NCBI GenBank assembly: GCA_964411565.1
Contig: CAYPLB010000001.1
Coordinates: 106,839 to 170,838 of the forward strand
Reading direction: 5' to 3'
Length of the DNA stretch: 64,000 nucleotides
From: Candidatus Woesearchaeota archaeon
GTDB taxonomy: Archaea > Nanobdellota > Nanobdellia > SCGC-AAA011-G17 > GW2011-AR17
In this document: in pieces, positions 18,438-43,896 of the stretch
Numbering within the stretch: the first letter of the stretch is position 1
Layout: every line of letters starts with the position of its first letter
Position numbers and translations under genes: made by a program
The notes under the pieces: model-generated
Seen by the model: only the letters and a program-made list of their open reading frames with translations
Databases searched by the model: none
What the model was told of the DNA's origin: nothing

Positions 18438-19543
18438 AAAAAGTTTTGTTTATTTTAGAAGATTTTTATCCTATGAAAGGAGCTCCTGCAGTAAGGATTA
18501 ATTCTTTTATTAAAAAATTTAAAGATTGTAAAGTTGAAGTTCTTGGTGGTTCAAGCGAAAAGGTTTACAAGAGAGGATGGTATATAATACATAGGCCTTC
18601 AGAAAGTAAGTTGTTTTCATTTATTTGGTTTTTAATAAAAATGAATGTAAAAGCTGTTTATTTAACTTTAATAAAAAGGTATGATCTTGTTGTTGTTTCT
18701 ATTCCTAAATATGAAGTTTTGTTGAGTTTTCCTTTAATTAAATTGTTGAGTAAGAAGACTGTTTTGGATATTAGAGATTCGTTTGAATTTTTGAGATATG
18801 ATTCTTATTTTAAACATTTTTTTCCAAGGGTAGTGGCAGAAGGTTTGGGTGCTTTTGTAAAAAATTATTTTGTGAGAGGATTTTTGAATGTAAGTTTTAA
18901 ATTAGCAGATTTGATTACTGTGGCAAATAGAGGTATTAAAAATTCTCTTTCAGGGTTAGATAATGTTTATGTTGTTTCTAATGGGGTAGATGTAGACTTG
19001 TTTAGGCCTAAAAATAAAATGAAAAAATCAAATTTACAATTAATTTATGTTGGTAATTATTCTGAAAAAGATAGATTTCATTGGATTCTAAATGTAGTCC
19101 CCAAATTTAATGTAACTTTGAATTTAGTTGGGAATGGTAGATGTAAAGGAAAAATTTTGAAAAAATTCAAGGAAAGAGATGTTGATTATGTTGATCATGG
19201 ATTTGTAAAACATGAAGATATGCCTAGAATTTTATCTTCAATGGATCTAGGTTTTATATTTAGAGATGCTGAAATTAATGAATCAATTCCTGTATCTGTT
19301 TATGAGTTTTGTGCAATGAATATTCCTACATTAATAAATGATGTTGGTATTATGTCTAAGTTTGTTAAAGAAAATAATTTAGGATTTGTTTTGAGAAGTC
19401 AAGAAGATTTTCAAGTATTAATGAAGAACTTTGTAATAAATCGAGGTGAATTGAGTAAATTTTCTAATTTACATACTTTAGCTGTTGATAATTTTTCTAG
19501 GAAAAAAGAAGCTGAGAAATTTAGAAATCTAGTTTTAAGTTAG
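18434..19543 (+). CDS. GT4-like glycosyltransferase
   Basis: 369 aa. It overlaps the upstream stop by 4 nt. The C-terminal region ESIPVSVYEFCAMNIPTLINDVG is GT-B/GT4-like. Confidence 0.6.
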   Translation: MKKVLFILEDFYPMKGAPAVRINSFIKKFKDCKVEVLGGSSEKVYKRGWYIIHRPSESKLFSFIWFLIKMNVKAVYLTLIKRYDLVVVSIPKYEVLLSFPLIKLLSKKTVLDIRDSFEFLRYDSYFKHFFPRVVAEGLGAFVKNYFVRGFLNVSFKLADLITVANRGIKNSLSGLDNVYVVSNGVDVDLFRPKNKMKKSNLQLIYVGNYSEKDRFHWILNVVPKFNVTLNLVGNGRCKGKILKKFKERDVDYVDHGFVKHEDMPRILSSMDLGFIFRDAEINESIPVSVYEFCAMNIPTLINDVGIMSKFVKENNLGFVLRSQEDFQVLMKNFVINRGELSKFSNLHTLAVDNFSRKKEAEKFRNLVLS

Positions 19544-20573
19544 GAAGTCTTGTTACTTCGTAGATTCTCAAGGATAATGTATTTGGATCTGATGTTCTTT
19601 CAGTTAATAATTTGGTTTTTGAATTTAAGTTTCTTCTGAATTGTTTTTCTAATGCTGTTTTAAACATCTTTGATGGTTTATTGAAGTGTTCTTTGAATGT
19701 GTAAATAAAAAATGCAGTTTCAATTCCTGAAGGATTGTAAGCAAAACCATACTTGCTTTTTTCTGCGATTTTTAAGTGTTCTTTACTTAAAGCATATTGA
19801 GTTAGCTTTTTGAATTTTTTTGATCTCCAAAATGAATGGGAAGGAAATTTTTGTTTTAACATTGCTAGAGCATAAAGATTGAATGCATGGTAAGCAGCTT
19901 CTTTTTTGTAAAGATATCTTTTTGAAGTTTTGTTCTTTAAAAAATTTAATGGAGTAATTATTTGAGGATAAATGAAATGTCTTATTAATCCATTTTTGTG
20001 AATATGTAAGTTATTTTCAAGCTCGTCCATGAATTTGTTAACCTCTTTTCCAATACTGTCTTTTTTGGAATTAGAAATTAAAGAAGAACAAGCAGCAAAC
20101 CAAAGTTGGTGATTAAATGTTAAATCTAGGAATAATTCTCTTCCATTTATTTCTCTTTTTTTCCAATAGGATAGAAAATTGTGGTAGTTTATGTAGTGGA
20201 AAGTCTGTTTTGCTAAGTTTTTATATTTTATCTCTTTAGTGTTTTCATAAGCAATCATTAAAGCTTCTATTGACCAGGCTTGTCCAATTAAACCATTACA
20301 TTTGTCTTTACCTTTTTTGTTTCTATAATAAAAAGTATAATTGTGTGGTCTAGCTTCTTTTAAGAAAAGAAAATTTATGTGTTTTATAGCAGCTTTTTTG
20401 TATTTTATCTTTTTTGTAATTTTATAAGCTTTGAAGAATAAAATAGAAAGGTGTGCATGAGTTCTAACCATTGTTTCGGGATCTTTGTAAGGACCATTGT
20501 GACCTGATTTGGTTTTACTTTTAAGAAAATAATCTGCATTTTTTATTATTATAGTATTAAGGTCTGTTTTCAT
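19521..20573 (-). CDS. hypothetical protein, possibly (alpha/alpha)-toroid fold sugar-modifying enzyme
   Basis: 350 aa, all-helical and K-rich, with a weak GQAWSIEAL signal. It has no firm family assignment. Confidence 0.4.
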   Translation of the reverse strand: MKTDLNTIIIKNADYFLKSKTKSGHNGPYKDPETMVRTHAHLSILFFKAYKITKKIKYKKAAIKHINFLFLKEARPHNYTFYYRNKKGKDKCNGLIGQAWSIEALMIAYENTKEIKYKNLAKQTFHYINYHNFLSYWKKREINGRELFLDLTFNHQLWFAACSSLISNSKKDSIGKEVNKFMDELENNLHIHKNGLIRHFIYPQIITPLNFLKNKTSKRYLYKKEAAYHAFNLYALAMLKQKFPSHSFWRSKKFKKLTQYALSKEHLKIAEKSKYGFAYNPSGIETAFFIYTFKEHFNKPSKMFKTALEKQFRRNLNSKTKLLTERTSDPNTLSLRIYEVTRLPNLKLDF

Positions 20574-21972
20574 TTTTTAGATGTTTTTTGGCTTTGTAAG
20601 TCATTACACTAACCATAGCAATGTCAAATAATCCTCCATATAATGTGAAGAAAATCATGTAATATTCTAAAATACCAAAAATGCTAAAAAGAATTATACT
20701 GTGACATAAGAAAAAATCGTTTAACATAAATTCTTTTAGCCATCCTCTTTTCTTTCTCTCTTTTTTTACTTCATCCATTCCGAAGTTAAACATTACTCTA
20801 AAGTTATATTGAACTATTACAGAGAATTCTAATACTGCAAAAGCTGTGAATGTCCAAATCCAAACATATACTGAAGGATTATTTAAGTAAATACCCCAGG
20901 CTATTGCAAAGAATAAAATAGGGTTCATTATCCTATCAGCTATTTTATCGTACCAACCACCTAATGGAGAACACATGTCTTTTTGTCTTGCTAAATTTCC
21001 ATCTACAGTGTCGAAAACGAATGATAAATAGTAAAGTAAAGAAGCTATTAAAACATAAACATAAATTCCTGTTGAGTAGAAATATGATGCTACTATAAGT
21101 AATAACATGCTAAAAAAAGTTACTTGGTTTGGTGTAATTTTTGTATCTTTTATTGCATGAACAATGAAGTATGTAAGTGTAACATGAGGAATTCTTAAAA
21201 TATCTGTGTAAAGTCCTTCTTTGATATGTTTGCCTTCTCTAATTTCTTTTAATGAAAGTTTTTTCTTTTTTGTTTTTGTAGTTTGTTTATTGAATTTGTA
21301 AATTCTTAATCTTGTTTCAGGGAATTTGTTTAATTCACAACCCTCTTCAAACATGTTGTTATGTTTTATGATATCAAAACCTATACTCTTGAAGAAATTT
21401 ATGTATTGTTCTGGAGTTCTGTAAGTTGCACTGTAATAAGTTTGTAGAGCTTCTGAAAATCTTCTATTAATCTCATATCTGCCTTTGATACCTGTTCCAT
21501 CTCTTAAAATTATTTTTGTATTCTCATGTGAATATTGTCTAATCTTTTCTCCTAATTTTATTAAATCAGTATCATTTAAGTAAATTAAAAGTCTTGAGAT
21601 AAAAATTATGTCATATTTTGTTTGACTATCATATTCTTGAGCTGAAGCTTGGAAATATTTTATGTTGTTTATTCCTTGTTCTTTACATTTCTTTTTCCCT
21701 AAAGCAATTAAATCGAAACAATAATCTACTATATGAACTTCTTTAGCTTTTTTTGCAAATCTGAATGCCCATCTACCATAGCCACCAGCTAAATCTAGAA
21801 TGGTTTTATTATGTAAATTTGGAAGAAATTCGTCAACTCTTTTTTCTTCTAAGTCTGTTTTTAATTTTCTTAACCTATTATCATCTTCAAGATTAGTAAT
21901 GCCTTTGTTGTCACTATGTTGTTCTGCTCTCTTTTCCCAAAAGTCTTTTACTTCCTTTAAGTTGATTGCCAT
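20557..21972 (-). CDS. fusion protein: N-terminal class I SAM methyltransferase + C-terminal CDP-alcohol phosphatidyltransferase
   Basis: 471 aa. The N-terminus has ILDLAGGYGRWAF (motif I). The C-terminus has DTVDGNLARQKDMCSPLGGWYDKIADR, an exact D-G-x2-A-R-x8-G-x3-D-x3-D signature, within a multi-TM region. Confidence 0.75.
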   Translation of the reverse strand: MAINLKEVKDFWEKRAEQHSDNKGITNLEDDNRLRKLKTDLEEKRVDEFLPNLHNKTILDLAGGYGRWAFRFAKKAKEVHIVDYCFDLIALGKKKCKEQGINNIKYFQASAQEYDSQTKYDIIFISRLLIYLNDTDLIKLGEKIRQYSHENTKIILRDGTGIKGRYEINRRFSEALQTYYSATYRTPEQYINFFKSIGFDIIKHNNMFEEGCELNKFPETRLRIYKFNKQTTKTKKKKLSLKEIREGKHIKEGLYTDILRIPHVTLTYFIVHAIKDTKITPNQVTFFSMLLLIVASYFYSTGIYVYVLIASLLYYLSFVFDTVDGNLARQKDMCSPLGGWYDKIADRIMNPILFFAIAWGIYLNNPSVYVWIWTFTAFAVLEFSVIVQYNFRVMFNFGMDEVKKERKKRGWLKEFMLNDFFLCHSIILFSIFGILEYYMIFFTLYGGLFDIAMVSVMTYKAKKHLKNENRP

Positions 21973-23216
21973 TTTAAGTATGATAATTTTGTATTTGTTA
22001 ATAATTTGTTTGATAAACTTAAATTTTTAGGTTTTTTGATTCTTGTATTAAATAAGAAATCCATGTTAAAGGTTGTGAATTCGTTTTCTTGCTTTGTTGG
22101 GATAGGTAATACTCGAATGCCTAATGGTTTGTCTAATGTTGATGATAAAGATGCTATATCTAAGATAATAGAGTTTAGCTCTTCTTCAAAAATGTCACCA
22201 GGTAAAGGAACCATGTCTAGACCACATCCGCAAACAGCTGAGTATGATATTAATGAGTCAATTGAAAATAATTTGTTGTTATTTCTTAAACCTAATTGTT
22301 CATCTTCTAATAAAGAAAACATAACTCCATTGAATCCTGTAGTTGGGATGTTATTTCTTTTCTGAATTTCTTTTAAGATGTCAGTTAAATAGGAAGTTAA
22401 GAATAAAGTTCCATTGCTACCAAGTTGTTCTAAACCTAAGAGTTCTATTAATTCTGCTACACTACTACCTTTCTCTGGATAAGGTGCAAGAGAAAAATCT
22501 ATTCCATGATATTTAATAAAATGTTTATTTGTTAAAACTGTTAACATTTTATTTATTTGATTTATTTTTGGAGATATTTTTGTTATTATTTCTTCCCTTA
22601 ATGAAATTAAATCTTTGTTTTCAGAAGAGTTGATTATTTGTATGAACTCTTTTGGAAGTTCTAAACCTGCTGAAATACCTAGTTCTTCTGAACTGTATGT
22701 GTATGGAAAGAAAGGTGTGTTTGCTTTTATGTTACAAGAAATACCTACTCTGAAATTATTATAACCAGAGTTATCTAATTTTGATACGTCTTTGATGAAT
22801 TTACTTGCAATAGGTATTGAATTGTAAGAAATGTTTTTGTTTTTTGCAACAATTAAATTTGAAAAAGTTTTTGAGTATCTTTTTAAGATTGTTAAGGCTA
22901 ATTTGGATAATTCTTTTGGATTCTCGGTTAAATCAAAAGGTATGTTTATCCATCTAATGTTTAATCTGTCTGCAAAGCTTGAAAAAGTTTCTATTTTTCC
23001 TATTATTTTTTGTGAATTTAAATCTGAATTTTTGTTTGTGATTGGAGTTAAGTTTATTCTAAATGTTCTAACATTGATGTTTTCCATAGCTAAAGCTATT
23101 GTTGTTTCTTCAAGAAAATTTTTTAGTTTTGATTCTAGATGTAATAAAGTATCAGATTCTATGTCAATAGGAATCCCAATTGTTATTGTTCTAAGATCCA
23201 TTTTTTGTTTTCTCAA
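21957..23216 (-). CDS. hypothetical protein
   Basis: 419 aa, soluble, with no recognisable motif. It is operonic with flanking genes (16-nt and 26-nt overlaps). Confidence 0.45.
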   Translation of the reverse strand: MRKQKMDLRTITIGIPIDIESDTLLHLESKLKNFLEETTIALAMENINVRTFRINLTPITNKNSDLNSQKIIGKIETFSSFADRLNIRWINIPFDLTENPKELSKLALTILKRYSKTFSNLIVAKNKNISYNSIPIASKFIKDVSKLDNSGYNNFRVGISCNIKANTPFFPYTYSSEELGISAGLELPKEFIQIINSSENKDLISLREEIITKISPKINQINKMLTVLTNKHFIKYHGIDFSLAPYPEKGSSVAELIELLGLEQLGSNGTLFLTSYLTDILKEIQKRNNIPTTGFNGVMFSLLEDEQLGLRNNNKLFSIDSLISYSAVCGCGLDMVPLPGDIFEEELNSIILDIASLSSTLDKPLGIRVLPIPTKQENEFTTFNMDFLFNTRIKKPKNLSLSNKLLTNTKLSYLKWQST

Positions 23217-25011
23217 TTAAATTAATGTAATCTAAAGGGGTATTTATCTCATGGAAGAATATATCTTTTATGTCAATAATGTTTATTTCAAAATTTTCTA
23301 AAGGTAAATTGATTCCAGCAAAAACATTTTTGTTGTTTAAACATCTTTTTTTCCATTCTCTTAAAATATCTGGATTTGAAATTTTGAATATTCCTGTTGT
23401 TTCAGGTTCATTTGAAAAATCTTCTCCAAAAAACATATCTTTTATTATTCCTTCTTCAGATTTACATCTTACTGTGTTATAACCTTTGTTTTCTGATTGA
23501 AATACAAATACTGAGTTATCTGGTGAAGATTCTATTAAATTTAACATTTCTTCGTCGAAAATTAAGTCTGATGATGTGACTATTGTAGGTCGGTCATCTA
23601 AAGCTAAACTTAAACTATAGCTATTTCCTGTGATTCTCCATTGGTCATTGTAAACATAATTTAAATGAGGATATTCTTGCATAACATGTAAAGCTTTGTG
23701 GCCTAAAACTACTGTGATTTCATAATCTTTGAAAAGCCTAGAATATTTTTCTATTAAAGTTTCTTGATTTTTCGGATCTTTTATGAAAAGTTTGTTTAAA
23801 CCATGAACTTTGAAACCTTGGCCTGCAGCTAGGATAATTAATCTTTTAGATTTATTTTCCTTTTCTATTAGAATCTCTCCTTTTAAGTTTTCTAATGGAA
23901 TATAACATTCACTAATTACTCTGGGAAAATTGTGTTTGACAGTTTTGTAAGGATATATGTCTCCTTGGTTTGCCCTTGCTATTACTGTAGGAATATCAAC
24001 ATATTCTTCTTTTCTTAAAGTCCAAACTTTTACATCTTCATAATTAAAACCTTGTGTAGGTATTTTTTTAATCCCCATTCTTATTGCAGCTTGTAATCTA
24101 TGTTGGCCGTCAAGAACTAAGTTGTGATTTTTTTCAATATAAATTGGTTTTAACCATGCACCATCTTTTTCAATTTTTTCTACTAAAATATTAACTCTTT
24201 CTTCATCAAAATTTTCTATATGTTTAAGTTTTTCAGTTTCTATGAAATTAATTTCTTTTTCTTTTGGTTGTTCTTCATCAAATTCTAACTCTACAGCTTT
24301 GTAGTAATCCTCTGGAGAATTGAAAGTTGAAAATTTATATTGGCTAGCATTTCCTTCAATACATGGTAAGTGATTTAAGTTTTCAATCCATGGTATTAAG
24401 AAATATTGTTTGAAAGTTTTTTCTGCATAAATGTTAACAAGTTTTTTGAATAAGTCAATTTCATTTGGACCCACTCTCATTAAACCTGTTAGTTTTGTAT
24501 GGTTTTTGTATTCTTCTCTGTATTCTGGAACTATTCTAATATCATTTATGTTACCTAACTCATCTGATCTTAAAATACCACCATATTGAGTATCATTAAA
24601 TTTTCCTTTTGTAAGCCAAGTTGATTTCCCTTCAAAGTCAGAACCAGCTAAATATTGTAATAATGAATCTTCAGCAATCATATCAGCTTCAACAATAATA
24701 AAAGGATTTTCTATATGATCTAAAGCAAGTTTCATAGAATAAATGTTAGTATCTTCAAAATATCTAGGATTTTCTACAATTTGTATTTCAATATCTGCTA
24801 TATTTTTTGTTTCTTCAATAATTTTATCTTTTGCAAAGCCCACAACAATTATAATTTTTTCAATATTAGCTTTTTTTAATTGATTGATAACTCTAGATAA
24901 GATAGTTTGATCTTTGTATTTCAATAAAGACTTGTGTTTTCCCTCACAAAGCAATCCCATTCTTCGGCTAGATCCTGCAGCTAGAATTATAGCCTCTTTA
25001 ATCTCGTTCAC
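23191..25011 (-). CDS. tri-domain protein: nucleotidyltransferase - ParB/sulfiredoxin-like domain - nucleotidyltransferase
   Basis: 606 aa. The N-terminus has AIILAAGSSRRMG (sugar/alcohol-phosphate NTase G-x-G-x-R loop). The middle has LVLDGQHRLQAAIRMG (ParB/Srx-type DGxHR). The C-terminus has a second LIILAAGQGFKV NTase-like domain. Confidence 0.6.
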   Translation of the reverse strand: MNEIKEAIILAAGSSRRMGLLCEGKHKSLLKYKDQTILSRVINQLKKANIEKIIIVVGFAKDKIIEETKNIADIEIQIVENPRYFEDTNIYSMKLALDHIENPFIIVEADMIAEDSLLQYLAGSDFEGKSTWLTKGKFNDTQYGGILRSDELGNINDIRIVPEYREEYKNHTKLTGLMRVGPNEIDLFKKLVNIYAEKTFKQYFLIPWIENLNHLPCIEGNASQYKFSTFNSPEDYYKAVELEFDEEQPKEKEINFIETEKLKHIENFDEERVNILVEKIEKDGAWLKPIYIEKNHNLVLDGQHRLQAAIRMGIKKIPTQGFNYEDVKVWTLRKEEYVDIPTVIARANQGDIYPYKTVKHNFPRVISECYIPLENLKGEILIEKENKSKRLIILAAGQGFKVHGLNKLFIKDPKNQETLIEKYSRLFKDYEITVVLGHKALHVMQEYPHLNYVYNDQWRITGNSYSLSLALDDRPTIVTSSDLIFDEEMLNLIESSPDNSVFVFQSENKGYNTVRCKSEEGIIKDMFFGEDFSNEPETTGIFKISNPDILREWKKRCLNNKNVFAGINLPLENFEINIIDIKDIFFHEINTPLDYINLIEKTKNGS

Positions 25012-25764: not shown

Positions 25765-25773
25765 AAGAGGCAT

Positions 25774-26596: not shown

Positions 26597-26637
26597 AATG
26601 ACTATATAAGTGACTATAGTATATAAACCTTTTGTTT

Positions 26638-27903: not shown

Positions 27904-28836
27904 TCAAGCTTCTAAAACTTTTAATACTGTATCAACAAGGTTGTCTTTGTCAAGTCCATACTTTTTGTATAAGTCGTTTGGATTTCCACTCTCACCAAAG
28001 AAATCTTTTGGTAAACCAATCTTTGTTAAAGCAGCTCTTCCATCATTCTCAACAATTGCTGAAGCAACCATATCACCAAGTCCACCAATAACTCTGTGAT
28101 CCTCTATAGTTACTATTTGGTCATATTCTCTTGCAACTTTACCAACTGAAGCACCATCAAAAGGATGTATAGAAGGTACATTGATTACTTTTGTTGAAAT
28201 CTTATGTTTTTCTTCAAGTTCTTTAGCAGCTTCTAATGCAGTAGCAATTGTTCCTCCCTGTGCATATACTGCAATATCGTTACCTTGTCTAAGAGTTACT
28301 GTTCTACCTGGAATAAATCTATAATTCTCTTTATTTACTTCTAACATTGGTTGTCTACATAATCTTAAGTAAGCTGGGCTATTGCTTGTAGCAAGATGTT
28401 CCATAATTGCTTTTGTTTCTATTTCATCAGCAGGTTGGTATATTTCTAAACCTTGCATTGCTCGCATAATTGCTAAATCTCTTGTACCCATTTGAGTTGC
28501 ACCGTCTTTACCAATTGCTAAACCTGCATGAGTTCCAACTAAAACTACTGGAGCTCTGTTATAACAAATTGAATTTGCTATTTGGTTTGTTGCAACTTCC
28601 ATGAATGCACCAAAAGTACTGAAGAAAGGTCTGTAACCTGAAAGAGCTAAACCAGATGCAATACTAACAGCATTTGATTCTGCAATTCCACATTCAAAAA
28701 ATCTTTCTGGATATTGTTTGCCAAAAGCTTTTGTTTTTGTAGCACCACATAAGTCTGCACTTACTACTAAAATATTTTCATATCTTGAACCTAAATCTAA
28801 TAAAGATTCACCAAATGATTCTCTTGTTGATTTCAT
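27904..28836 (-). CDS. transketolase, C-terminal subunit (split transketolase)
   Basis: 310 aa. It has pyrimidine-binding and C-terminal domains (FFECGIAESNAVSIASGLALSG...THAGLAIGKDGATQ). It overlaps the N-terminal subunit gene by 4 nt. Confidence 0.9.
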   Translation of the reverse strand: MKSTRESFGESLLDLGSRYENILVVSADLCGATKTKAFGKQYPERFFECGIAESNAVSIASGLALSGYRPFFSTFGAFMEVATNQIANSICYNRAPVVLVGTHAGLAIGKDGATQMGTRDLAIMRAMQGLEIYQPADEIETKAIMEHLATSNSPAYLRLCRQPMLEVNKENYRFIPGRTVTLRQGNDIAVYAQGGTIATALEAAKELEEKHKISTKVINVPSIHPFDGASVGKVAREYDQIVTIEDHRVIGGLGDMVASAIVENDGRAALTKIGLPKDFFGESGNPNDLYKKYGLDKDNLVDTVLKVLEA

Positions 28837-29723
28837 TGATAACCTCCTAATTCAGTCATTGCTTTTTTGTAATCTGTATCTCCAATTTTTTTTGCGTGCC
28901 AGGACATTGTGTTTTCCATGAAAGAAACACCTTTGCCTTTAACAGTGTCAGCAATAATCATTGTTGGTTTGTCAGTAACTTCTCTTGCAATTTTGTAAGC
29001 ATCTAATAAGTCTCTATAATTATGGCCATCAGCTTCAATTACATTCCAACCAAAGGCTTCCCACATTTTGGGAAGTTGTTCTCTTGGAAGTAATCTTGTA
29101 GAAGCTCCATCATTTTGAAATTGGTTATAATCAGTTATTGCAAGTAAGTGACCTAGTTTACCTTCTCTTGCGAATGTTGAAGCAGACATAGCAGCTTCCC
29201 AAACTTGACCTTCTTGACTTTCACCATCACCAATAATTACATAAGTTCTTCTGTCTAAACCTTGAAGTTTTGCAGCTAAAGAATAACCAATAGCTCCACT
29301 TAATCCTTGGCCTAATGAACCTGTTGAAAAGTCAATGTATTCAGGTAAAGCAGTTCTAACTGGATGACCTTCAAGTCTACTGTCAACTTCTCTTAAAGTA
29401 TCAACAAGTTCTTTTTCAGGAATAAAATCACCAACTGCTAAAGCTGCGTATAATGCTGGAGCAGCATGACCTTTTGAAAGAATAAAAATATCTCTTTCAG
29501 TTGGAGCTGGTTCGAAGGTTGGTCTCTCTCCTGTTTTTGAGTGTCTTATTACATTTTTTGTTGGTACACCAAAATTCATCTCCTCAAAAAATAAACTAGT
29601 TACTAAATCAGTAACAGATAAAGATGGACCTGGATGACCTGATTGAGTTTTGTAAAGGGATTCTATGATTAATCTCCTTGCATGTAAACTCTTTTCTTCT
29701 AAATTTTTAATTTTATCTTTCAT
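28833..29723 (-). CDS. transketolase, N-terminal subunit (TPP-binding)
   Basis: 296 aa. QSGHPGPSLSVTDLV, GHAAPALYAALAV and GSLGQGLSGAIG...IGDGESQEG match the TPP/PP domain. Confidence 0.9.
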   Translation of the reverse strand: MKDKIKNLEEKSLHARRLIIESLYKTQSGHPGPSLSVTDLVTSLFFEEMNFGVPTKNVIRHSKTGERPTFEPAPTERDIFILSKGHAAPALYAALAVGDFIPEKELVDTLREVDSRLEGHPVRTALPEYIDFSTGSLGQGLSGAIGYSLAAKLQGLDRRTYVIIGDGESQEGQVWEAAMSASTFAREGKLGHLLAITDYNQFQNDGASTRLLPREQLPKMWEAFGWNVIEADGHNYRDLLDAYKIAREVTDKPTMIIADTVKGKGVSFMENTMSWHAKKIGDTDYKKAMTELGGYQ

Positions 29724-29724
29724 T

Positions 29725-35778: not shown

Positions 35779-37146
35779 ATGGAAAATGTGGTGTTTATTG
35801 ATCCTTCACATAAAGGATCTACTGAGGAATTTAATTGTGGATTACTAACAATTGGAACTTATTTAGATTCTAAAGGTTATAAAGTTAATTTGATTTTTTC
35901 TTCAAATGATTATAGTGTGTTTGATCAATATATTAATGATGAAACTGTTTATGTAGGTATTTCTGCAATGACTACACAAATTCCAGAAGCATTGAAAGTT
36001 TTGAAATATGTAAAAGAAAAATGGCCTAAAGTAACAATTGTTTTTGGAGGTTATCATTCGATTTTGTATCCTGAACAAACTTTAGAACATAAAGATATAG
36101 ATTTTATTTGTTTAGGAGATGGTGTTGAACTTTGTGAAGAATTAATTTTAGCTTTGAAAGGAAAAAAAGAATTTAAGGATATTAAGGGTTTAGGTTATAA
36201 AGAAAATGGTAATTTGAAGTTTAATGAGAAATGTGCTCATACAGATCTTTCTATTATTCCAAGGATGAATTATGGTTTAGTTCATGATTTTAAGCCAATT
36301 GAAAGAAAATTACATTTTAATAAAGGTGAAAAAGTTAAAACAGGAATTGTTTTCTCAGGGAATGGCTGTCCCTTTTCTTGTACTTTTTGTATTAATTCTG
36401 CTATGCAAAGGAAATGGCAAGGAAGAGATATAGAATTAGTCTTAGATGAAATTGAATGGTTTATTAATGAACATGAAGTTAATGATATTTATTTGATAGA
36501 TGAATTATTTTTTGTAAAGAAAGAAAGGTTCTTTCAATTTTTAGATGGGATTGAAAAAAGAAATTTGAATTTTACTTGGAACTCTCAATGTAGAGCAGAA
36601 TATTTTGGAGATCATTATTTATCTGTAGATGTTTTGAAGAGAATGAGAAAATTGGGAGCTAGTGGAATTTTGTTAGGAGTTGAATCTGGCTCACAGAGAA
36701 TGTTAAATAAAATGAGGAAAGGAATTAAAGTTAGTAGTGTCATCAAAGCAGTTGAAATGATGGGGGAAGCTGGAATTGTTCCAAGAGCTAGTTTTATTAT
36801 TGGAATGCCTGGTGAAACTCGAGACGATATGTTGAGAACTTTTAAGTTGATCATAGAATTGTATAAAATAAATTCGAATCTGTATTTACATGGACCAAGT
36901 ATTTATAGACCTTATCCAGGTGGTTTAATGTATGATGAATTGTTGGAATCAGGACATTATAGTCATCCAAAAAAATTGGAGAAGTGGGATTTAGTAGATT
37001 CTTCTTGGAATGATAGATATCTTCTAAAAGATTCAGATTGGATTGAAGAAAAAGATTTAATTTTAGATATTAAGGATACTTTAAATGTTTTTAAGAAATT
37101 TAAGAAAAGAAAAATGTTTGATGTTGCTAGATTCTTTTTGAAGTAA
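35779..37146 (+). CDS. B12-binding radical SAM enzyme (class B rSAM, likely methyltransferase)
   Basis: 455 aa. An N-terminal cobalamin-binding-like domain is followed by GNGCPFSCTFC (C-x3-C-x2-C). Confidence 0.8.
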   Translation: MENVVFIDPSHKGSTEEFNCGLLTIGTYLDSKGYKVNLIFSSNDYSVFDQYINDETVYVGISAMTTQIPEALKVLKYVKEKWPKVTIVFGGYHSILYPEQTLEHKDIDFICLGDGVELCEELILALKGKKEFKDIKGLGYKENGNLKFNEKCAHTDLSIIPRMNYGLVHDFKPIERKLHFNKGEKVKTGIVFSGNGCPFSCTFCINSAMQRKWQGRDIELVLDEIEWFINEHEVNDIYLIDELFFVKKERFFQFLDGIEKRNLNFTWNSQCRAEYFGDHYLSVDVLKRMRKLGASGILLGVESGSQRMLNKMRKGIKVSSVIKAVEMMGEAGIVPRASFIIGMPGETRDDMLRTFKLIIELYKINSNLYLHGPSIYRPYPGGLMYDELLESGHYSHPKKLEKWDLVDSSWNDRYLLKDSDWIEEKDLILDIKDTLNVFKKFKKRKMFDVARFFLK

Positions 37147-37361: not shown

Positions 37362-38324
37362 ATGAAAAATTTTTATCTTAGAATATTGCATGTATTTATT
37401 TTATTGAGTTTACTTTTTGCAGTTTTTTGGAAAGTTGGTGTTGATAGTATTATTGAAGTTTTTGTAAATCTTAATCCAATATGGTTGATTCCTTTTGTTG
37501 TAATCTATTTATCAACAAAGTTGATGGCAACTTTGAATCTTGCACTTCTGTTTAAAGCAATAAAGAAAAAAGTTTCTTATTTGATGTTGTTGAAATTTTT
37601 GTTATTGACAAATGCTGTAACTTTATTTTTTCCTAGTAGAACCGGAGAATTGAGTTTGCCAATATTATTGAAGAAACATAAAAATTTTGATTATGGAGAA
37701 GTTTTGTCTGTACAATTAATAGATAAATTGATTACTTTTGTTTTTTTTGGTGGATTAGCTTTATTTGGTTTAATATTTTTGTTTGATTTATCTAATAACT
37801 ATTTGTATATTTTGATCTTTACCTTAGTTTTACTTGTTTGTGTTGGATTTGCTGCATGGTCGGATAAATTTAGATTTTATGTGAAAAAATATGTATTAAG
37901 GAAATATTCTAAATATTTTAGGAATTTTTCTTCAAGTTTTAAGTATGCTTTTAGGAATAGGAAAAAATATTTGATAGTTAATTTTTTTGTAACCTTATCT
38001 CTTTTAATTGTTACTTTTATGGGAGGAGTATTTTTATTCTTAACTTTTGGACAGGAAGTTTCTTTGTTGCATGTTGCAATGATACAAGCTGTTGTAACAA
38101 TGATAACTTTACTTCCTATTCCTTTTTCAGGTCTAGGTTTGAAAGAAATTTCTGGAATTTATATGTATGGAATTATTGGAGTTCCGTATGCTGTTTCAGT
38201 TAATTATTTTTTGTTTAACTTTTTGTTTAAGTATATATTTGGATCTGTTGTTTATGGGATATTTAATAAAGAATTCTTAGGGAAGAAAAGAAATCATGTT
38301 GTTTCCAGTGTTGAGGATAGTTGA
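37362..38324 (+). CDS. integral membrane protein, flippase-like (UPF0104/LPG-synthase TM-like)
   Basis: 320 aa with about 8 TM helices. Proteins of this type often accompany GT2 genes. Confidence 0.4.
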   Translation: MKNFYLRILHVFILLSLLFAVFWKVGVDSIIEVFVNLNPIWLIPFVVIYLSTKLMATLNLALLFKAIKKKVSYLMLLKFLLLTNAVTLFFPSRTGELSLPILLKKHKNFDYGEVLSVQLIDKLITFVFFGGLALFGLIFLFDLSNNYLYILIFTLVLLVCVGFAAWSDKFRFYVKKYVLRKYSKYFRNFSSSFKYAFRNRKKYLIVNFFVTLSLLIVTFMGGVFLFLTFGQEVSLLHVAMIQAVVTMITLLPIPFSGLGLKEISGIYMYGIIGVPYAVSVNYFLFNFLFKYIFGSVVYGIFNKEFLGKKRNHVVSSVEDS

Positions 38325-39137
38325 ACCTTTTTCTTGTAAAAATTTTAATCCTCTTTCAAAATCTTCTTTATTTTCAAAATAGTAAATATTTTTATCTTTT
38401 AGTTTGAATAAAAAGGAAGTTATATTTTTTTCAATTGTTGTTTCATCAATTTGTTTCTTTGCAAAATATTCTTCTGTTTCTTTGAAAGTTTTGATTGTTC
38501 CTGTGTCAAGCCAAGTGAAAACAACACCTTTTAGTTCTTTTTCAAGTAAAGCATTTGAACCATTTGAAACTTGAATCTCATCTTTTATTAGAGTCTTATT
38601 ATTTGTTAATGCACTCCAGAAAGTTTCATAGTCCTTTATTCCTAAAGCTCCAATATAAGCATGTTTGTTGTCACATTTTACTTTGTCATCAAGTCTTATT
38701 ATAATATTTTTTTCATCCATTTTTACAGAACAAAATCTTTCAACATCATCGATCTTAGAAATTCCCATCCAATTTATAATTGGTTTTGGTATTTCTTCTA
38801 ATACAATAGTATCAGCTGCTAAGTGAATAAATGGACATTGAAGGTGATTTTTACACATTAACATAGAGTAACCAGGACCTGAACCTATACCTTCAAATTT
38901 TTCAATATTAACAAAAGTGATTTTATGATCTGGATGTGCAAATTTAATGTATTCAATAAGTTTTTCTTTGAGATATCCTACAGCAATTACAATCTCAACA
39001 TCTTTTGGAAATTTTTCTATTAAATAAGATATTACTCCCTTGTTATTTATAGGAAGCATAGCTTTGTTCATTGTTGCAGCTAATTTTCCCATCCTAGTTC
39101 CTTTACCTGCTGCTAAGATACAAACTTTGTATTCCAT
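38277..39137 (-). CDS. nucleotidyltransferase, paralog of the N-terminal domain of the 30311..31972 protein
   Basis: 286 aa. MEYKVCILAAGKGTRMG...FPKDVEIVIAVGY...GSGPGYS is about 45% identical by eye to the other NTase over its full length. Confidence 0.75.
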   Translation of the reverse strand: MEYKVCILAAGKGTRMGKLAATMNKAMLPINNKGVISYLIEKFPKDVEIVIAVGYLKEKLIEYIKFAHPDHKITFVNIEKFEGIGSGPGYSMLMCKNHLQCPFIHLAADTIVLEEIPKPIINWMGISKIDDVERFCSVKMDEKNIIIRLDDKVKCDNKHAYIGALGIKDYETFWSALTNNKTLIKDEIQVSNGSNALLEKELKGVVFTWLDTGTIKTFKETEEYFAKKQIDETTIEKNITSFLFKLKDKNIYYFENKEDFERGLKFLQEKGSTILNTGNNMISFLP

Positions 39138-39210: not shown

Positions 39211-40698
39211 TTGATAATGTCTAAAAGTTCACTAGATTGGATTGTAAGAGGAGCATTTTTTGTGTTTATAGGTTTGTTTTTCTCTAAATTGCTAAATTTT
39301 GCATTTAGAACTATTGTTGCAAGATGGTTAGGTCCAGTAGATTATGGTGTTTTGAGTTTAGGTATTGCTGTGTTTAGTATTGTTGGAATGGTTGCTTCTT
39401 TAGGTTTGGAACATGGTGTTGAAAGATACTTAGGATACTTTTATGGAAAGAAAAAAGAAATGAAGAATGTAATCTTTTCAGGTTTGAAGATAGCTTTTGT
39501 TTCAAGTATTATTTTTGCTGTGTTATTATTTGTATTTTCTAGTAATTTATCAAGTTTGATTAGTTCAAATGGTACATTAAGAAGTTTCTTACTAATATTA
39601 GCTTTGGTTTTACCTTTCTGGGTTATTACTGAGTTGTTTATGGCTGTGTTTAGAGGAACAAAGAAAATTGAAAACTATATTACTGTTAGGCAAATTGTTG
39701 AGCCAGGAGTAAAAGTTTTGTTGGCTGTAGCATTTTTATATTTTGGATATTCATTGTTTGGAGTTATGTGGGCTTATGTTTTGAGTTATTTTGTTAGTTT
39801 TTTTGTAGGAATGTTTTTTGTTTGGAAATTGATTTCAAAGTATAAAGATAAAAATTTAGGAAAATCTTTTGGAAAGAAATTGTTGACATTTTCTTGGCCA
39901 TTGTTGTTTATGGGGGCTTTGTTTACTTGTATGACTTGGATTGATACATTGATGATTGGATATTTTTTAACTGAAGATTTAGTAGGTGTATATAATGTTG
40001 CTATACCTTTAGCTGCTTTGTTAGTTATACCTATTAATTTGTTTAAGGGATTGTTTATTCCTGTAGTTAGTAAATTATATGCTGAGAAAAAGTTTAAGGA
40101 AATTAAAAAAGTATATAAGAAATTGTTGTGTTGGTTTGTAAGTTTAACTTTCCCACTGTTTATGTTTATGTTTTACTATACTGAAGAATTAATTGTATTT
40201 TTATTTGGTATGGATTATGTTGGAGCTTTGTGGCCAATGAGAATTTTGTTGTTAGGAACTATGATTGTTACTTTCTTTGGGGTTTTAGGATTATTGTATA
40301 ATAGTTTTGCTATGACCAAAATGAAATTATTAATTAGTTTTGTTGCTACAGTTATAGGTGTAGTGTTGAATATTGTTTTTATTCAAATTTATGGGATTAC
40401 AGGTGCAGCATTAGCAACTGCTTTGTCTTTGTTAGTGTTTAATATTTTGTTGTTTGTGCCTCTGTTTAGAAGATTTAGAATATCTCTTTTAGATTTTGAT
40501 TTGATAAAACAATATTTTAGAGTTTTAATTGTTGGAGTTTTGAGTTTCTTTGCTTTAGTTTGGATTTTTGGTAATGTAGAGAGATATATTCTTATTTTAT
40601 TTGCTTTAGTTTATGGTTTTGTTTATTTATTGTTCTTGTTTATTTTTGGTGGAATAAATAAAGAAGATGTGAAAAGTTTTAAAAGTTTTAGAAATTAA
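39211..40698 (+). CDS. MOP-superfamily polysaccharide/oligosaccharide flippase (Wzx-like)
   Basis: 495 aa with about 14 TM helices, typical of the polysaccharide biosynthesis protein family. Confidence 0.7.
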   Translation: MIMSKSSLDWIVRGAFFVFIGLFFSKLLNFAFRTIVARWLGPVDYGVLSLGIAVFSIVGMVASLGLEHGVERYLGYFYGKKKEMKNVIFSGLKIAFVSSIIFAVLLFVFSSNLSSLISSNGTLRSFLLILALVLPFWVITELFMAVFRGTKKIENYITVRQIVEPGVKVLLAVAFLYFGYSLFGVMWAYVLSYFVSFFVGMFFVWKLISKYKDKNLGKSFGKKLLTFSWPLLFMGALFTCMTWIDTLMIGYFLTEDLVGVYNVAIPLAALLVIPINLFKGLFIPVVSKLYAEKKFKEIKKVYKKLLCWFVSLTFPLFMFMFYYTEELIVFLFGMDYVGALWPMRILLLGTMIVTFFGVLGLLYNSFAMTKMKLLISFVATVIGVVLNIVFIQIYGITGAALATALSLLVFNILLFVPLFRRFRISLLDFDLIKQYFRVLIVGVLSFFALVWIFGNVERYILILFALVYGFVYLLFLFIFGGINKEDVKSFKSFRN

Positions 40699-41411
40699 GT
40701 TAAAAATACTTGTTTTGATATGTCTTCTTTTTTTAGGAATACATGTATTGTTTTTGCAATCCAGTATATATTGTAAGAGAATGCATAGAATAAAATGTAG
40801 TACTCTGGAATTCCAATTAATATAGAGATAAATAACATTTCAATTGAATAATCGATAAGCATTATTTTTCTTGATATTGAGTAAATATTGTGTAGTTTTC
40901 CTTGTTTTTTTGGTTTATCATCAGTAATTTTCTTTTGGTAAATGAACATCTCTTTTAATGGGATTAATTCTTTCATGATAAATCCAATTAGGAAAAAACT
41001 CATAGCTATAATTATCCAAGTTTTACCTGTGTTTAGAAAATATGAAATAGCTAAGAAAGTTTGTGGTAAAATTGCCATGGACCATGATCCAATGAAATCT
41101 ATAATTGCTCCTTTCTTACTGAATTGTTTTTTGTATCTAGCTAATGAACCATCTACCATGTCTAATTGTAAACAAAGTAAAATAATTGCACTTGCGATTA
41201 TGTGTACTGAAAAGTTGTAGATCAAGAAAAAAGGTGATGTAATTAAAACTAGTAAAACCCAAAACATTGTTAATTGGTTTGGAGTTATTTTAGTGTGAAG
41301 TAAAGTCCAAAGAAAATAAGGAGAGAAAATTCTAAGATGAGTTTCTGTTTTTCTGTTTTTGAATTTCCAAGCGAACTTATTTAATTCTTTTATTGATGGA
41401 ACTTTTTTCAT
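40695..41411 (-). CDS. CDP-alcohol phosphatidyltransferase family protein
   Basis: 238 aa and multi-TM. DMVDGSLARYKKQFSKKGAIIDFIG is the D-G-x2-A-R-x8-G-x3-D signature (the last Asp position is degenerate). Confidence 0.7.
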   Translation of the reverse strand: MKKVPSIKELNKFAWKFKNRKTETHLRIFSPYFLWTLLHTKITPNQLTMFWVLLVLITSPFFLIYNFSVHIIASAIILLCLQLDMVDGSLARYKKQFSKKGAIIDFIGSWSMAILPQTFLAISYFLNTGKTWIIIAMSFFLIGFIMKELIPLKEMFIYQKKITDDKPKKQGKLHNIYSISRKIMLIDYSIEMLFISILIGIPEYYILFYAFSYNIYWIAKTIHVFLKKEDISKQVFLT

Positions 41412-42136
41412 TTTTTTCTTGCTATGAATACAAACTCTTGAGGAGTGATTGGTGGATATCTTTCGAATTCTCTGATTAATGCCATTGCTATTGGGTCTAA
41501 GTTTAAGTAATATAATCTTGAAGCATTTACTTGCAAATTGTAGTGATTGATAACTGTGTCAACTTCAATTATTTCAAAACCAGCTTCCTCTAATTCTTGA
41601 ATGAATTCTTTTTCTTTTATTTTATAATCTACAACATCAATCTTTTCGTTACTTTGTTTTATTGATCTATCTATGAAATTTTTGTTTGCCATGTCTGTAA
41701 TGAAAATTGAATTGTCATTTAAGTGAGAATGTACATTTGCTAAAAGCTTTTTTCTGTCTTCTTTGTCAAAATGTCTGAAAAATCTGAATGAATAAATTAA
41801 ATCATATTTATTCTTTAACTTTAAATTAAATGCATCACCTTGAATAAATTTCCAGTTTTTGCCTTTTAGTCTTTTTTTTGCAACATTTAACATATTTTTT
41901 GCATTGTCAAAAGCAGTTCCATTTTTTGCATTAATATCCACAGTTAATCTTGCTGGTCCACAAGCCAAATCTAAAACATTTTCTGCATTGTATTTTTTAA
42001 TATAAGAATTTACTATAGAAGTTTCTCTTTCATGTAAAAATCTGCCTAATGGTTTTGAGAATCTGTTTTTAACATAACCTTTGATTAAGCCTTCTGAATC
42101 ATAATGATCTTTTATATCATTCTTTTCTTTTAACAT
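41408..42136 (-). CDS. class I SAM-dependent methyltransferase
   Basis: 242 aa with VLDLACGPARLT (motif I). It overlaps the downstream gene by 4 nt. Confidence 0.75.
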   Translation of the reverse strand: MLKEKNDIKDHYDSEGLIKGYVKNRFSKPLGRFLHERETSIVNSYIKKYNAENVLDLACGPARLTVDINAKNGTAFDNAKNMLNVAKKRLKGKNWKFIQGDAFNLKLKNKYDLIYSFRFFRHFDKEDRKKLLANVHSHLNDNSIFITDMANKNFIDRSIKQSNEKIDVVDYKIKEKEFIQELEEAGFEIIEVDTVINHYNLQVNASRLYYLNLDPIAMALIREFERYPPITPQEFVFIARKK

Positions 42137-42594: not shown

Positions 42595-43896
42595 ATGAAG
42601 ATAAGTTTAGTGTTTGCAAGGATGAAATATAAAACTGGAGATCCTCCAGGAGGTTTGGCATTACTAGCAGCACAATTAAGAAATAATGGTTATTCTGTTG
42701 ATTTGGTAGATTCTACTTTTAATCCTACAATGGAATTTATTAAGAAAAGAATTGATGATTTTGATGCAGATTATGTTGCAGTATATTGTGATTCATTAAT
42801 GTTGAATGATGTTAAAGAAATTGCAAAATATTCAAAGTCTAAAGGGAAAAAAGTTATTATTGGTGGGCCACAAGCTACACTTAGACCTGAGACTTTAACA
42901 GAATTTTCTGATTATGTTGTAAAGGGTGAAGCTGAATTAGCTATGTTGGATATTTTGAAAGGCAAAGCTAAAGAAAAAATTTTAGAAGGAGAAAAAGCAG
43001 ATTTAGAAAATTTGCCTATTATGGCTTATGATCTTTTAGATATGGAAGAATATATCAAACTTTGGCATGTTTTTGATAGTATTGATCCAACTGTTAGAGG
43101 AACAAATATGTTTTCTTCAAGAGGATGTCCTTTTAGATGTACATTTTGTCAGCCTGTTCTTGAAAAGATTTTTGGTAAAGGAGTAAGAACAAGGACTGTT
43201 GATAGTGTAATTGAAGAAATGAAATATTTGAAGAATAATTTTGGTATTAATGCAATATGGTTCAATGATGATACTTTTACAGTTAGGAAAGAATGGATAA
43301 AAGAATTTTGTGAAAGAATTGTTGATGAAGAGTTAGAAATGCAGTGGGGAATTAATTCTAGAATAGGTTTATTAAATGAAGATGAAATGAGAATGATGTA
43401 TGCTGCTGGTTTGAGAATAATGCATGTTGGTGTAGAAACTGGATGTCAAAGAGTTGCTGATGAAATTTATAATAAGGATATTGATCTTTCTAAAGTTCAT
43501 GGGGATGTAGCTATGGCTGAGAAAGTTGGAATAAGATGTCTTTGTTATTTTATGCTTGGAGCTCCAGGAGAAACTAAAGAAGAAATTTTACAGACAATTA
43601 AATTTGCTAAGTCTTTAGATGCTACAGAAATTACTGCTACAATAACAACCCCATTACCTGAAACTCATATGTATGAAAGAATGAAAGATAAGTATAAGTT
43701 GACAGAAGATTATGATTATTATAAAAATAGAATTTTTGAAGATGATAGTATCTCATTTTCAGAATTGAAATTTTTACAAAAAAGGTTGTTATTTGAATTT
43801 TATACGCATCCTAAGAGATGGAATTATGTTGCAAAACATTTAACTTCTGTTCAAGGATTGCATAAAATGTATTTGAAAGTTATGAGGTTTATGTAA
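42595..43896 (+). CDS. B12-binding radical SAM enzyme (class B rSAM)
   Basis: 433 aa. An N-terminal B12-binding-like domain is followed by SRGCPFRCTFC. It is a paralog of 35779..37146. Confidence 0.8.
   Translation: MKISLVFARMKYKTGDPPGGLALLAAQLRNNGYSVDLVDSTFNPTMEFIKKRIDDFDADYVAVYCDSLMLNDVKEIAKYSKSKGKKVIIGGPQATLRPETLTEFSDYVVKGEAELAMLDILKGKAKEKILEGEKADLENLPIMAYDLLDMEEYIKLWHVFDSIDPTVRGTNMFSSRGCPFRCTFCQPVLEKIFGKGVRTRTVDSVIEEMKYLKNNFGINAIWFNDDTFTVRKEWIKEFCERIVDEELEMQWGINSRIGLLNEDEMRMMYAAGLRIMHVGVETGCQRVADEIYNKDIDLSKVHGDVAMAEKVGIRCLCYFMLGAPGETKEEILQTIKFAKSLDATEITATITTPLPETHMYERMKDKYKLTEDYDYYKNRIFEDDSISFSELKFLQKRLLFEFYTHPKRWNYVAKHLTSVQGLHKMYLKVMRFM

Follow-up and report, generated by a model that had tools for sequence, protein, structure and literature searches.

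A three-domain archaeal protein unites the first three genes of a conserved operon predicted to build a CDP-activated precursor for surface decoration

The 64,000-nucleotide stretch of DNA that we analyzed, referred to here as the window (Candidatus Woesearchaeota archaeon, GenBank assembly GCA_964411565.1, contig CAYPLB010000001.1, positions 106,839 to 170,838), encodes a 606-residue protein in which two nucleotidyltransferase (NTase) domains, D1 and D3, flank a ParB/sulfiredoxin (Srx)-like domain, D2. The protein is the fusion of the first three genes of an operon that is conserved in bacteria and archaea, in the order D1, D2, D3, DUF711, methyltransferase (MTase), and Asp/Glu-racemase-family gene. 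As judged from a structural model, D2 belongs to the enzyme (kinase) branch of the ParB/Srx superfamily and not to its switch branch, and the operon probably follows a general scheme in which a kinase feeds a cytidylyltransferase and the resulting cytidine diphosphate (CDP)-linked compound, CDP-X, serves for transfer to a surface acceptor. What appears to be new here is a CDP-alcohol activation pathway with an unusual predicted kinase, an extra paralogous subunit, and a step attributable to DUF711.

The 606-residue open reading frame (ORF) is a real gene under purifying selection and not an assembly chimera, because an identical protein is already on record (P0001, with 13 member sequences), orthologs share its layout, and the ratio of nonsynonymous to synonymous substitution rates (dN/dS) is low. 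The orthologs, from the genomes 'archaeon SI037S2_bin4' and 'Nanoarchaeota archaeon BS150m-G60' (L007 and L008), are 90 to 91% identical and keep the three-part layout; measured against them, dN/dS is 0.05 to 0.10 across all three parts and 0.08 to 0.09 for the whole ORF. Tri-domain homologs with 56 to 59% identity (P0002 to P0004) have the same layout, and Pfam NTP_transf_3 matched the fusion in two stretches (E value, 1.7e-23). The earlier note on this DNA, made from the letters alone, had correctly located the ORF and its three motifs (AAGSSRRMG at residues 11 to 19, LVLDGQHRLQAAIRMG at 298 to 313, and AAGQGFKV at 395 to 402), and the layout that it proposed, an NTase, a ParB/Srx-like domain, and a second NTase, is supported. 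The G+C content of the window is about 28 to 30%. MAFFT alignments that mix tri-domain, two-domain, and D3-only sequences stack the paralogous NTase domains on each other, and identities in these misaligned sets drop to about 22% for two-domain rows (A3) and to 18 to 44% for D3-only rows (A5).

For the operon census, one genome per species was scanned; the 62 loci returned were combined with loci fetched earlier and the window itself and were annotated by our own ORF calling and phmmer seeds derived from the window, and the transferase counts given below are lower bounds. Among 63 D2-bearing loci, DUF711 and D1 were each present in 59, D3 in 48, an MTase resembling phosphoethanolamine N-methyltransferases (PMT-like) in 37, and the racemase in 34. 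The DUF711 gene adjoins D2 in 59 loci, and three of the four exceptions (L014, L031, and L062) run off a contig end. The genes are separate in 36/63 loci (Pantoea, Pseudomonas, Xanthomonas, Agrobacterium, Castellaniella, Cedecea, Roseovarius, Acidobacteriota, and others), D1 and D2 are fused in 23 (Anaerolineales, Scalinduaceae, Myxococcota, Verrucomicrobiota, a Methanosarcinales archaeon, gut Firmicutes, Bacteroidales, Coriobacteriia, and Patescibacteria), and all three are fused in 4, all archaeal and with the window among them. The architecture, which the earlier note had called unusual, is thus rare as a triple fusion, but the same three modules occur as adjacent genes in the 59 other loci. 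In a protein search with the fusion, the tri-domain form of 606 to 622 residues accounted for 4 among the best 120 of 266 matches, and the two-domain D1-D2 protein (about 380 residues) was abundant across many phyla at 45 to 63% identity; a search with D2 alone, run to exhaustion, gave 776 clusters at 50% identity, nearly all of them stand-alone proteins of 125 to 175 residues or NTase-fused proteins of 355 to 390 residues. In the window, successive genes overlap by 26, 16, and 17 nucleotides (nt), as expected for a single transcription unit.

Individual census loci differed in detail. In a metagenome-assembled genome (MAG) of Castellaniella sp. (L056, 10376-13825), D1 is cut to a 128-residue ORF, and DUF711 and the MTase are fragmented into three or four short ORFs apiece, reflecting either a decaying cassette or frameshift errors of long-read assembly. 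In a Myxococcaceae MAG (L046, 16224-16847), D2 is found not between D1 and D3 but on the other strand, at a distance of about 5 kb. Xanthomonas sp. XNM01 has, in a second locus, an extra orphan D2-like gene (L066, 9713-10381; a 222-residue ORF), around which no other cassette genes were detected with the window-derived seeds.

The predicted fold of D2 is closest to those of the small-molecule kinases SerK and SbnI. D2 and D3 were each modeled alone with AlphaFold2, and the model of residues 245 to 385 (pLDDT, 92.9; pTM, 0.85) had only SerK and SbnI entries as its first nine Foldseek matches in the PDB, with E values of 2.3e-9 to 6.8e-8 and query-normalized template-modeling (TM) scores of 0.73 to 0.82; for SerK itself (5x0b), the TM score was 0.82 and the root mean square deviation was 2.6 Å. 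Cytidine triphosphate (CTP)- or CDP-bound ParB, Noc, and KorB ranked 10th or lower (E values from 3.8e-4; TM scores of 0.40 to 0.47), and sulfiredoxin scored about 0.4. At the sequence level, NCBIfam matched residues 250 to 341 to the archaeal ADP-dependent L-serine kinase SerK (1.7e-8), and a search of PDB sequences returned SerK (5x0b; 4.8e-5), a Pyrococcus homolog (1vk1), and, weakly, SbnI; the Pfam ParB_N match at residues 251 to 319 stayed below its cutoff of 26.3 bits, at 18 bits for the full protein and 21 bits for D2 alone.

D2 also retains motifs of SerK. In the PDB sequence alignment, E266 falls on SerK Glu30, which is the residue probed by the E30A and E30Q mutants named in the titles of 5x0e, 5x0g, 5x0j, and 5x0k, and D301-G302-Q303-H304-R305 falls on SerK D69-G-H-H-R73. 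E266, D301, G302, H304, R305, K356, T357, K359, and H360 were invariant in 28 diverse homologs and again in 118 homologs. The earlier note was right to assign the middle segment to the ParB/Srx superfamily, as the AlphaFold2 model and Foldseek confirm, and the Box II (GxxR) residues of ParB, for which it had proposed a check, are kept: G302 and R305 of LDGQHR are invariant or nearly so in both homolog sets. Box II is no discriminator, however, because SerK and Srx share it, and the closest folds are those of SerK and SbnI and not those of CTP-bound ParB or Noc, so that the proposed CTP-sensing or CTPase module was not borne out. Rare other architectures of the SerK-like mini-domain occur among P0311, P0267, P0316, and P0304; this set holds a 3365-residue protein with seven matched stretches, a 649-residue protein with two, a 595-residue protein with the domain at the C terminus, and a 389-residue protein with the domain at the N terminus.

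D1 resembles LicC, the CTP:phosphocholine cytidylyltransferase, which is its best PDB relative (1jyk; 3.1e-8); Pfam NTP_transf_3 scores 84 bits on D1, against a cutoff of 27. The AAGSSRRMG...HK stretch of D1 aligns residue for residue to AAGLGTRLR...PK of LicC, with R17 and K27 on the LicC signature, and the invariant E108-A-D110, with the acidic residue expected at the metal site, aligns to the D-A-D motif of LicC. G13, R16, R17, K27, E108, D110, and N231 were invariant among 28 homologs. That D1 uses CTP is suggested by its partners only: it is mainly the company of CDP-OH_P_transf, LicD, and Glyphos_transf proteins that points to a CDP-linked product. The donors used by the CDP-OH_P_transf, LicD, and TagF/TarL-like families are CDP-activated alcohols.

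These partner transferases belong to three unrelated families and comprise CDP-OH_P_transf proteins in at least 9 loci (the window included, where the transferase is fused to the MTase), LicD in at least 8, and TagF/TarL-like proteins in at least 26. The TagF-like family contains Pfam Glyphos_transf in 9 of 14 members and gives a profile match to TarL, the ribitol-phosphate polymerase (8va1; 8e-4), but the assignment is marginal from single sequences, and the Pantoea protein alone matched the PDB by its GT25 part only. Together with the LicC-type D1, the CDP-dependent families support the general idea, put forward in the earlier note, that the protein serves nucleotide-alcohol formation.

The remaining partners hint at the compound that is activated. 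The MTase of the window is closest in the PDB to phosphoethanolamine N-methyltransferases (1e-8, collinear from residue 2), and a profile of its family matched these structures at 7e-23, 3e-22, and 2e-16, against about 1e-10 for generic S-adenosylmethionine (SAM)-dependent MTases; NCBIfam matched the MTase-CDP-OH_P_transf fusion to archaetidylinositol-phosphate synthase (3.5e-16). The racemase-family partner, whose gene is not in the window, is closest to true aspartate racemases and McyF (7e-21 to 4e-11). By our own reasoning, O-phosphoserine is like aspartate in shape and charge, and this partner thus favors a product in which the alpha-carboxylate and the stereocenter are retained. The closest PDB entry to the DUF711 protein is the structural-genomics target SP0239 (2ha9; 2.9e-19), and ECOD lists DUF711, without an assigned function, among the ten-stranded barrels of RNR/PFL-like type (PMC4390871). 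Cassette-linked DUF711 members share an invariant CGCGxD motif.

We suggest that D2 transfers phosphate to the hydroxyl group of X-OH, a small amino compound resembling serine, and that D1 then joins phospho-X and CTP to give CDP-X and pyrophosphate. The PMT-like MTase would N-methylate the amino group at some stage, and the alpha-carbon would be inverted where an aspartate-racemase-like enzyme is present; DUF711 would carry out a further obligatory reaction in the pathway, and D3 would act as a noncatalytic or specialized partner subunit of D1. A CDP-alcohol-dependent transferase would finally move phospho-X to a membrane-bound or glycan acceptor; in the window this would be the membrane CDP-OH_P_transf fused to the MTase, acting on a lipid or lipid-linked glycan, and elsewhere a LicD or TagF/TarL-like enzyme. 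The fusion may serve to channel phospho-X from kinase to transferase. Our preferred candidate for X retains its amino-acid character and is of the N-methyl-phosphoserine or N-methyl-phosphothreonine type, although we hold it with less than even confidence. More tentative still is the fuller proposal that the donor is a hitherto undescribed amino acid linked to CDP, such as the L or D form of CDP-(N-methyl)-O-phosphoserine, with the ParB-fold kinase as the committed step and DUF711 providing an obligatory reaction.

Several observations weigh against this pathway and the kinase at its head. D2 scores 33.9 bits on the NCBIfam SerK equivalog model NF053625, far below the cutoff of 380 bits; only SerK residues 14 to 117 and about 208 to 240 have counterparts in D2, which has about 130 residues to the approximately 240 of SerK and lacks some 90 of them (about 118 to 207). 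The substrate of SerK is therefore not transferable to D2, which is, as far as the alignments indicate, a distant SerK relative and neither an equivalog nor an ortholog. The second aligned stretch (KTxxH), in which P354-Y-K-T-V-K-H360 falls on SerK S219-P-K-T-T-R-H225, is not significant alone. A 2025 survey of ParB-CTPase-fold proteins reports that a SerK-like archaeal protein binds CTP rather than ATP and that nucleotide specificity is not reliably predicted from sequence or by AF3 (PMC12704722). No partner transferase was recognized in about 20 of the 63 loci. A bare kinase-cytidylyltransferase-transferase scheme also gives no role to DUF711, the most tightly linked partner, or to D3, and the pathway must therefore have at least one further step.

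The most probable alternative, which we nevertheless consider unlikely, is a de novo phosphocholine or phosphoethanolamine pathway, a prokaryotic counterpart of the plant and Plasmodium route through serine decarboxylase and phosphoethanolamine methyltransferase. D2 would phosphorylate serine or ethanolamine, with decarboxylation by DUF711 or before phosphorylation; the PMT-like enzyme would yield phosphocholine, D1 would yield CDP-choline, and LicD or CDP-OH_P_transf would complete the transfer onto a glycan or lipid, which in a DPANN archaeon would amount to a Kennedy-type head-group pathway. The closest solved relatives of the MTase are indeed phosphoethanolamine N-methyltransferases, D1 and D3 are closest to a phosphocholine enzyme, LicD is the partner in 8 loci, and the fusion of CDP-OH_P_transf with an MTase has the enzyme makeup of the eukaryotic choline/ethanolamine phosphotransferase steps. 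None of the four routes described in a review of bacterial phosphocholine involves a ParB-fold kinase or phospho-base methylation, so this role is unfilled (PMC10434233). Yet there is no recognizable decarboxylase in the cassette, where no pyridoxal phosphate-dependent or pyruvoyl family was detected, and casting DUF711 as the decarboxylase is pure conjecture; an aspartate-racemase-type enzyme, present in 34/63 loci, would make no sense for an achiral product, and LicD and TagF-like enzymes transfer other phospho-alcohols as well. The racemase was itself considered as the missing decarboxylase and rejected, given that its best relatives are true aspartate racemases and that, by our reasoning, phosphoserine lacks the malonate-type activation on which decarboxylases of this superfamily depend.

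D3 is a full-length paralog of D1 (hhalign probability of 98.2%, E value of 3.5e-14, and 203 columns) that on its own scores 28.2 bits on NTP_transf_3, just above the cutoff of 27. Its AlphaFold2 model (pLDDT, 92.1) has LicC, the inositol-1-phosphate cytidylyltransferase IPCT, and the phosphonate cytidylyltransferase PntC as the best Foldseek matches (TM scores of 0.73 to 0.82). Normally D3 stands alone as a protein of about 217 residues, and such homologs (P0121 to P0172) are 38 to 66% identical to it. D3 and D1 have in common a Lys (K19 in D3 numbering), an Asp (D94), and C-terminal Asn/Asp/Tyr positions. Across 22 D3 homologs, however, the position of D1 R16 holds Phe in 19 and otherwise Leu or Tyr, and the position of R17 holds Lys in about 11, Gln in 8, Arg in 2, and Glu in 1; in the window it is Lys (K401). 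The earlier note had named a lack of catalytic residues in the two NTase domains as evidence against its reading; this holds for half of the pair, since the signature of the first is intact and the second is without the conserved signature arginine. With dN/dS at 0.09 to 0.10, D3 is constrained as strongly as D1. The PMT-like MTase accompanies D3 in 36 of the 48 D3-bearing loci and in 1 of the 15 without it, whereas LicD occurs in 7/15 D3-less loci and 1/48 D3-bearing loci.

D3 is unlikely, on the conservation pattern of its family, to be a canonical NTP-using transferase; a specialized or noncatalytic partner subunit of D1 seems the most likely role. The competing view, that both NTase domains are active, either producing two donors or carrying out two successive nucleotidyl transfers, with K401 replacing the signature arginine, strikes us as quite improbable: the canonical Lys and Asp, the C-terminal N/D motif, the LicC/IPCT/PntC-like fold, the strength of selection, and the Lys found at the arginine position in the window and about half of the homologs speak for it, but about 10 of 22 homologs have Gln or Glu there, the preceding residue is of an invariant Phe type where D1 has an invariant Arg, and D3 is absent from 15/63 loci that keep D1, D2, and DUF711. 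D3 is thus not needed for the core chemistry.

Least probable of all is a ParB-type CTP-binding/CTPase switch in the middle domain that gates the flanking NTase domains, since the superfamily membership, the Box II Gly and Arg, the recovery of ParB, Noc, and KorB by Foldseek at a probability of about 1.0, and the CTP binding reported for a SerK-like archaeal protein are set against SerK/SbnI matches that are some five orders of magnitude better with about twice the TM score, an invariant SerK catalytic Glu, a subthreshold ParB_N match, the lack of a helix-turn-helix (HTH) or dimerization domain in Pfam scans of the fusion and the isolated domain, a Box III (ENxxR) that was not found by eye in the D2 alignment, and a free-standing gene of about 130 codons in a biosynthetic operon in 36/63 loci, an arrangement more in keeping with an enzyme than with a switch inside one polypeptide.

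Returning to the predicted kinase-cytidylyltransferase pathway, its parts have counterparts in several known systems. SerK of Thermococcus kodakarensis (TK0378; 5x0b) and SbnI of Staphylococcus (5uje and 6nr6) are ParB/Srx-fold small-molecule kinases, as D2 is predicted to be; D2 keeps the Glu30 equivalent and DGxHR and has these proteins as its best structural, NCBIfam, and PDB sequence matches, but it has only about 130 residues, is in many cases joined to a cytidylyltransferase, and has as its setting a surface-decoration operon rather than cysteine or siderophore metabolism. ParB, Noc, and KorB, which are CTP-dependent DNA clamps, share with D2 their fold at the superfamily level and, within the phosphate-binding motif, Gly and Arg, whereas D2 has a biosynthetic context, no HTH or dimerization domain, and a much weaker structural match to the clamps than to the kinases. 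The Lic-1 pathway, in which the choline kinase LicA, LicC, and LicD act in turn, has the same logic of kinase, cytidylyltransferase, and CDP-alcohol transfer to a glycan, and fused LicCA enzymes exist; the cassette differs in having a kinase of ParB/SerK fold where LicA has a protein-kinase-like fold and in adding DUF711, a PMT-like MTase, a racemase, and a second NTase-like subunit, and no choline transporter was seen in it.

A glycan of the type that we envisage occurs in Clostridioides difficile, whose type A flagellin carries N-acetylglucosamine with a phosphodiester-linked N-methyl-L-threonine (PMC10714395, PMC4441256). The proposed route uses CDP-L-threonine, a LicC-like NTase, an N-methyltransferase, and a TagF-like transferase (CD0240 to CD0244), with phosphothreonine proposed to come from a ThrH-like HAD-family phosphotransferase (PMC10714395). 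The C. difficile genes share with the cassette the CDP-amino-acid logic that we propose for it and a flagellar locus, as in Pseudomonas mangrovi, but include no DUF711, second NTase, or racemase and have a proposed HAD-family source where the cassette would have a ParB-fold kinase. In archaea, IPCT-DIPPS (Archaeoglobus and Thermococcales; 4mnd and 2xme) fuses a cytidylyltransferase to a CDP-alcohol phosphotransferase and channels the CDP-alcohol, and IPCT is among the best structural matches of D3 and the NCBIfam matches of D1 and the neighboring CDP-OH_P_transf. Here, in contrast, the NTase is joined to a kinase and a paralog, and the CDP-OH transferase is joined to an MTase; moreover, the IPCT substrate, inositol-1-phosphate, comes from a synthase and not from a kinase. 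GMPPB and GMPPA, like the small and large subunits of ADP-glucose pyrophosphorylase, pair a catalytic NTase with a paralog that has a degenerate loop. D1 and D3 likewise combine an intact NTase with a conserved degenerate paralog, although D3 is missing from a quarter of the loci.

The coordinates of the fusion and of the genes that follow it in the window are given in Table 1. The last of these, a 350-residue ORF, had no Pfam match and no transmembrane-like or hydrophobic segment and, going by its overlap, may be an uncharacterized fourth member of the operon.

Table 1. Positions in the window of the fusion gene, its predicted domains, and the downstream genes
Feature	Residues	Coordinates	Strand	Description
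Whole fusion D1-D2-D3		23191..25011	minus	606 aa, GTG start; from the ORF listing
D1	1-245	24277..25011	minus	Predicted LicC-type phospho-alcohol cytidylyltransferase, signature intact
D2	249-385	23857..24267	minus	Compact ParB/Srx fold; SerK/SbnI-type predicted small-molecule kinase
D3	389-606	23194..23847	minus	D1 paralog, cytidylyltransferase fold, degenerate signature loop AAGQGF-K
DUF711/UPF0210 gene		21957..23216	minus	Overlaps fusion 3' end by 26 nt; Pfam DUF711, 1.7e-68
MTase + CDP-OH_P_transf fusion		20557..21972	minus	Overlaps DUF711 by 16 nt; Pfam CDP-OH_P_transf and Methyltransf_25
PMT-like SAM-MTase part		~21268..21972	minus	N-methyltransferase-like
Membrane CDP-alcohol phosphotransferase part		~20557..21207	minus	Four hydrophobic segments in C-terminal half of the fusion
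350-aa soluble ORF		19521..20573	minus	Overlaps MTase-CDP-OH_P_transf 3' end by 17 nt

The surroundings are those of a glycan or head-group island, as the earlier note had supposed: the operon stands amid GT4 and GT-C glycosyltransferases, a Polysacc_synt flippase, an LPG_synthase_TM protein, and CDP-OH transferases. A second, unfused head-group set lies at 35779-43896 and consists of an NTase (38277..39137), a CDP-OH_P_transf (40695..41411), and a SAM-MTase (41408..42136), all on the minus strand, flanked by an LPG_synthase_TM gene (37362..38324), a Polysacc_synt/MatE flippase (39211..40698), and two B12-binding radical-SAM enzymes (35779..37146 and 42595..43896); because of this set, the archaeon may make two different CDP-activated decorations. 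The minus-strand run at 27904-35687, which comprises a transketolase split into N and C halves (27904..29723), a SIS-domain protein, a 553-residue APH-like phosphotransferase, HAD-family hydrolases, a shikimate-dehydrogenase-like protein, and a ROK kinase, has the look of a pathway for sugar or polyol phosphates beside the glycan genes. Also next to glycosyltransferases, in this DPANN-type genome, is a 611-residue protein with a eukaryote-type Ser/Thr kinase domain (13654-15489; Pkinase, 1.2e-25). Two plus-strand ORFs of 215 and 115 residues (25117-26121), neither with a Pfam match, diverge from the promoter region of the operon. Between these and a 407-residue ORF without a family match, two overlapping minus-strand ORFs of 82 and 88 residues (26127-26641) are, by eye, a candidate RelE/ParE-type toxin and antitoxin.

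Elsewhere, flagellin or FlgK genes lie less than 10 kb from the cassette in five loci. In Pseudomonas mangrovi, the cassette is flanked on one side by FlgE/FlgJ/FlgK/flagellin-family genes and on the other by an MTase protein with a weak, subthreshold Glyphos_transf match, an acetyltransferase, a DegT aminotransferase, and a large GT2/GT61 protein; this locus is a flagellin-glycosylation island. On an archaeal metagenome contig that encodes the tri-domain protein P0003 (L001, 5898-12247), the fusion and DUF711 are followed by two inositol-monophosphatase-family genes, a flippase gene (Polysacc_synt), an unfused CDP-OH_P_transf, and a HAD phosphatase, and there is no PMT-like MTase; this suggests an intermediate that is phosphorylated first and loses its phosphate afterward, in the manner of the DIPP and PIP synthase pathways. 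In Butyrivibrio fibrisolvens (L003, 4190-5485), a CTP_transf_like-PEP_mutase fusion of the phosphonate pathway and two LicD genes are directly upstream of the racemase, D1-D2, and DUF711 genes, and this locus may encode both a phosphonate and a phospho-amino decoration.

In public records these proteins carry automatic names that do not agree with each other ('NTP transferase domain-containing protein', 'choline kinase', and 'L-serine kinase (ADP)'). No description of the cassette was found in the open-access literature on DUF711, UPF0210, CDP-serine, and ParB-like domains with cytidylyltransferases, and two papers on Enterobacterales flagellar loci do not mention it. No fusion to an NTase is described in the text of the 2025 survey on ParB-CTPase-fold fusions, and the available supplements list no NTase or DUF711 Pfam accession (PMC12704722). 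The pneumococcal CDP-2-glycerol genes gtp1 to gtp3 were considered as an identity for the cassette; the open-access papers on them are silent on the nature of those proteins, and no link was made.

In summary, the series from three genes to two to one is a clean Rosetta stone case that points to proteins that may act together, within a cassette of five to six genes found across at least a dozen bacterial phyla and archaea. If the kinase assignment is true, the ParB/Srx fold would gain a third biological role, that of a metabolic kinase feeding nucleotide activation, and ParB-fold domains should not be taken for CTP switches as a matter of course. To our knowledge, DUF711/UPF0210 has no known function, and the cassette, if the model holds, would provide the first strong functional context for this structure-solved family; the CDP-amino-acid donor, if true, would give it its first function. 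On this model, it is probably a charged phospho-substituent, N-methylated, that the cassette adds to lipids, cell-wall polymers, or the glycans of flagellin, and phosphocholine and phospho-N-methylthreonine substituents are known to affect motility, immune recognition, and colonization. A CDP-amino-acid donor would imply a widespread zwitterionic surface decoration, from the flagellin glycans of Proteobacteria to gut Firmicutes. DPANN archaea are thought to depend on host lipids, and on the same reading the fused form found in them, together with the MTase-CDP-OH transferase, could place new head groups on scavenged lipids in a Kennedy-like manner.

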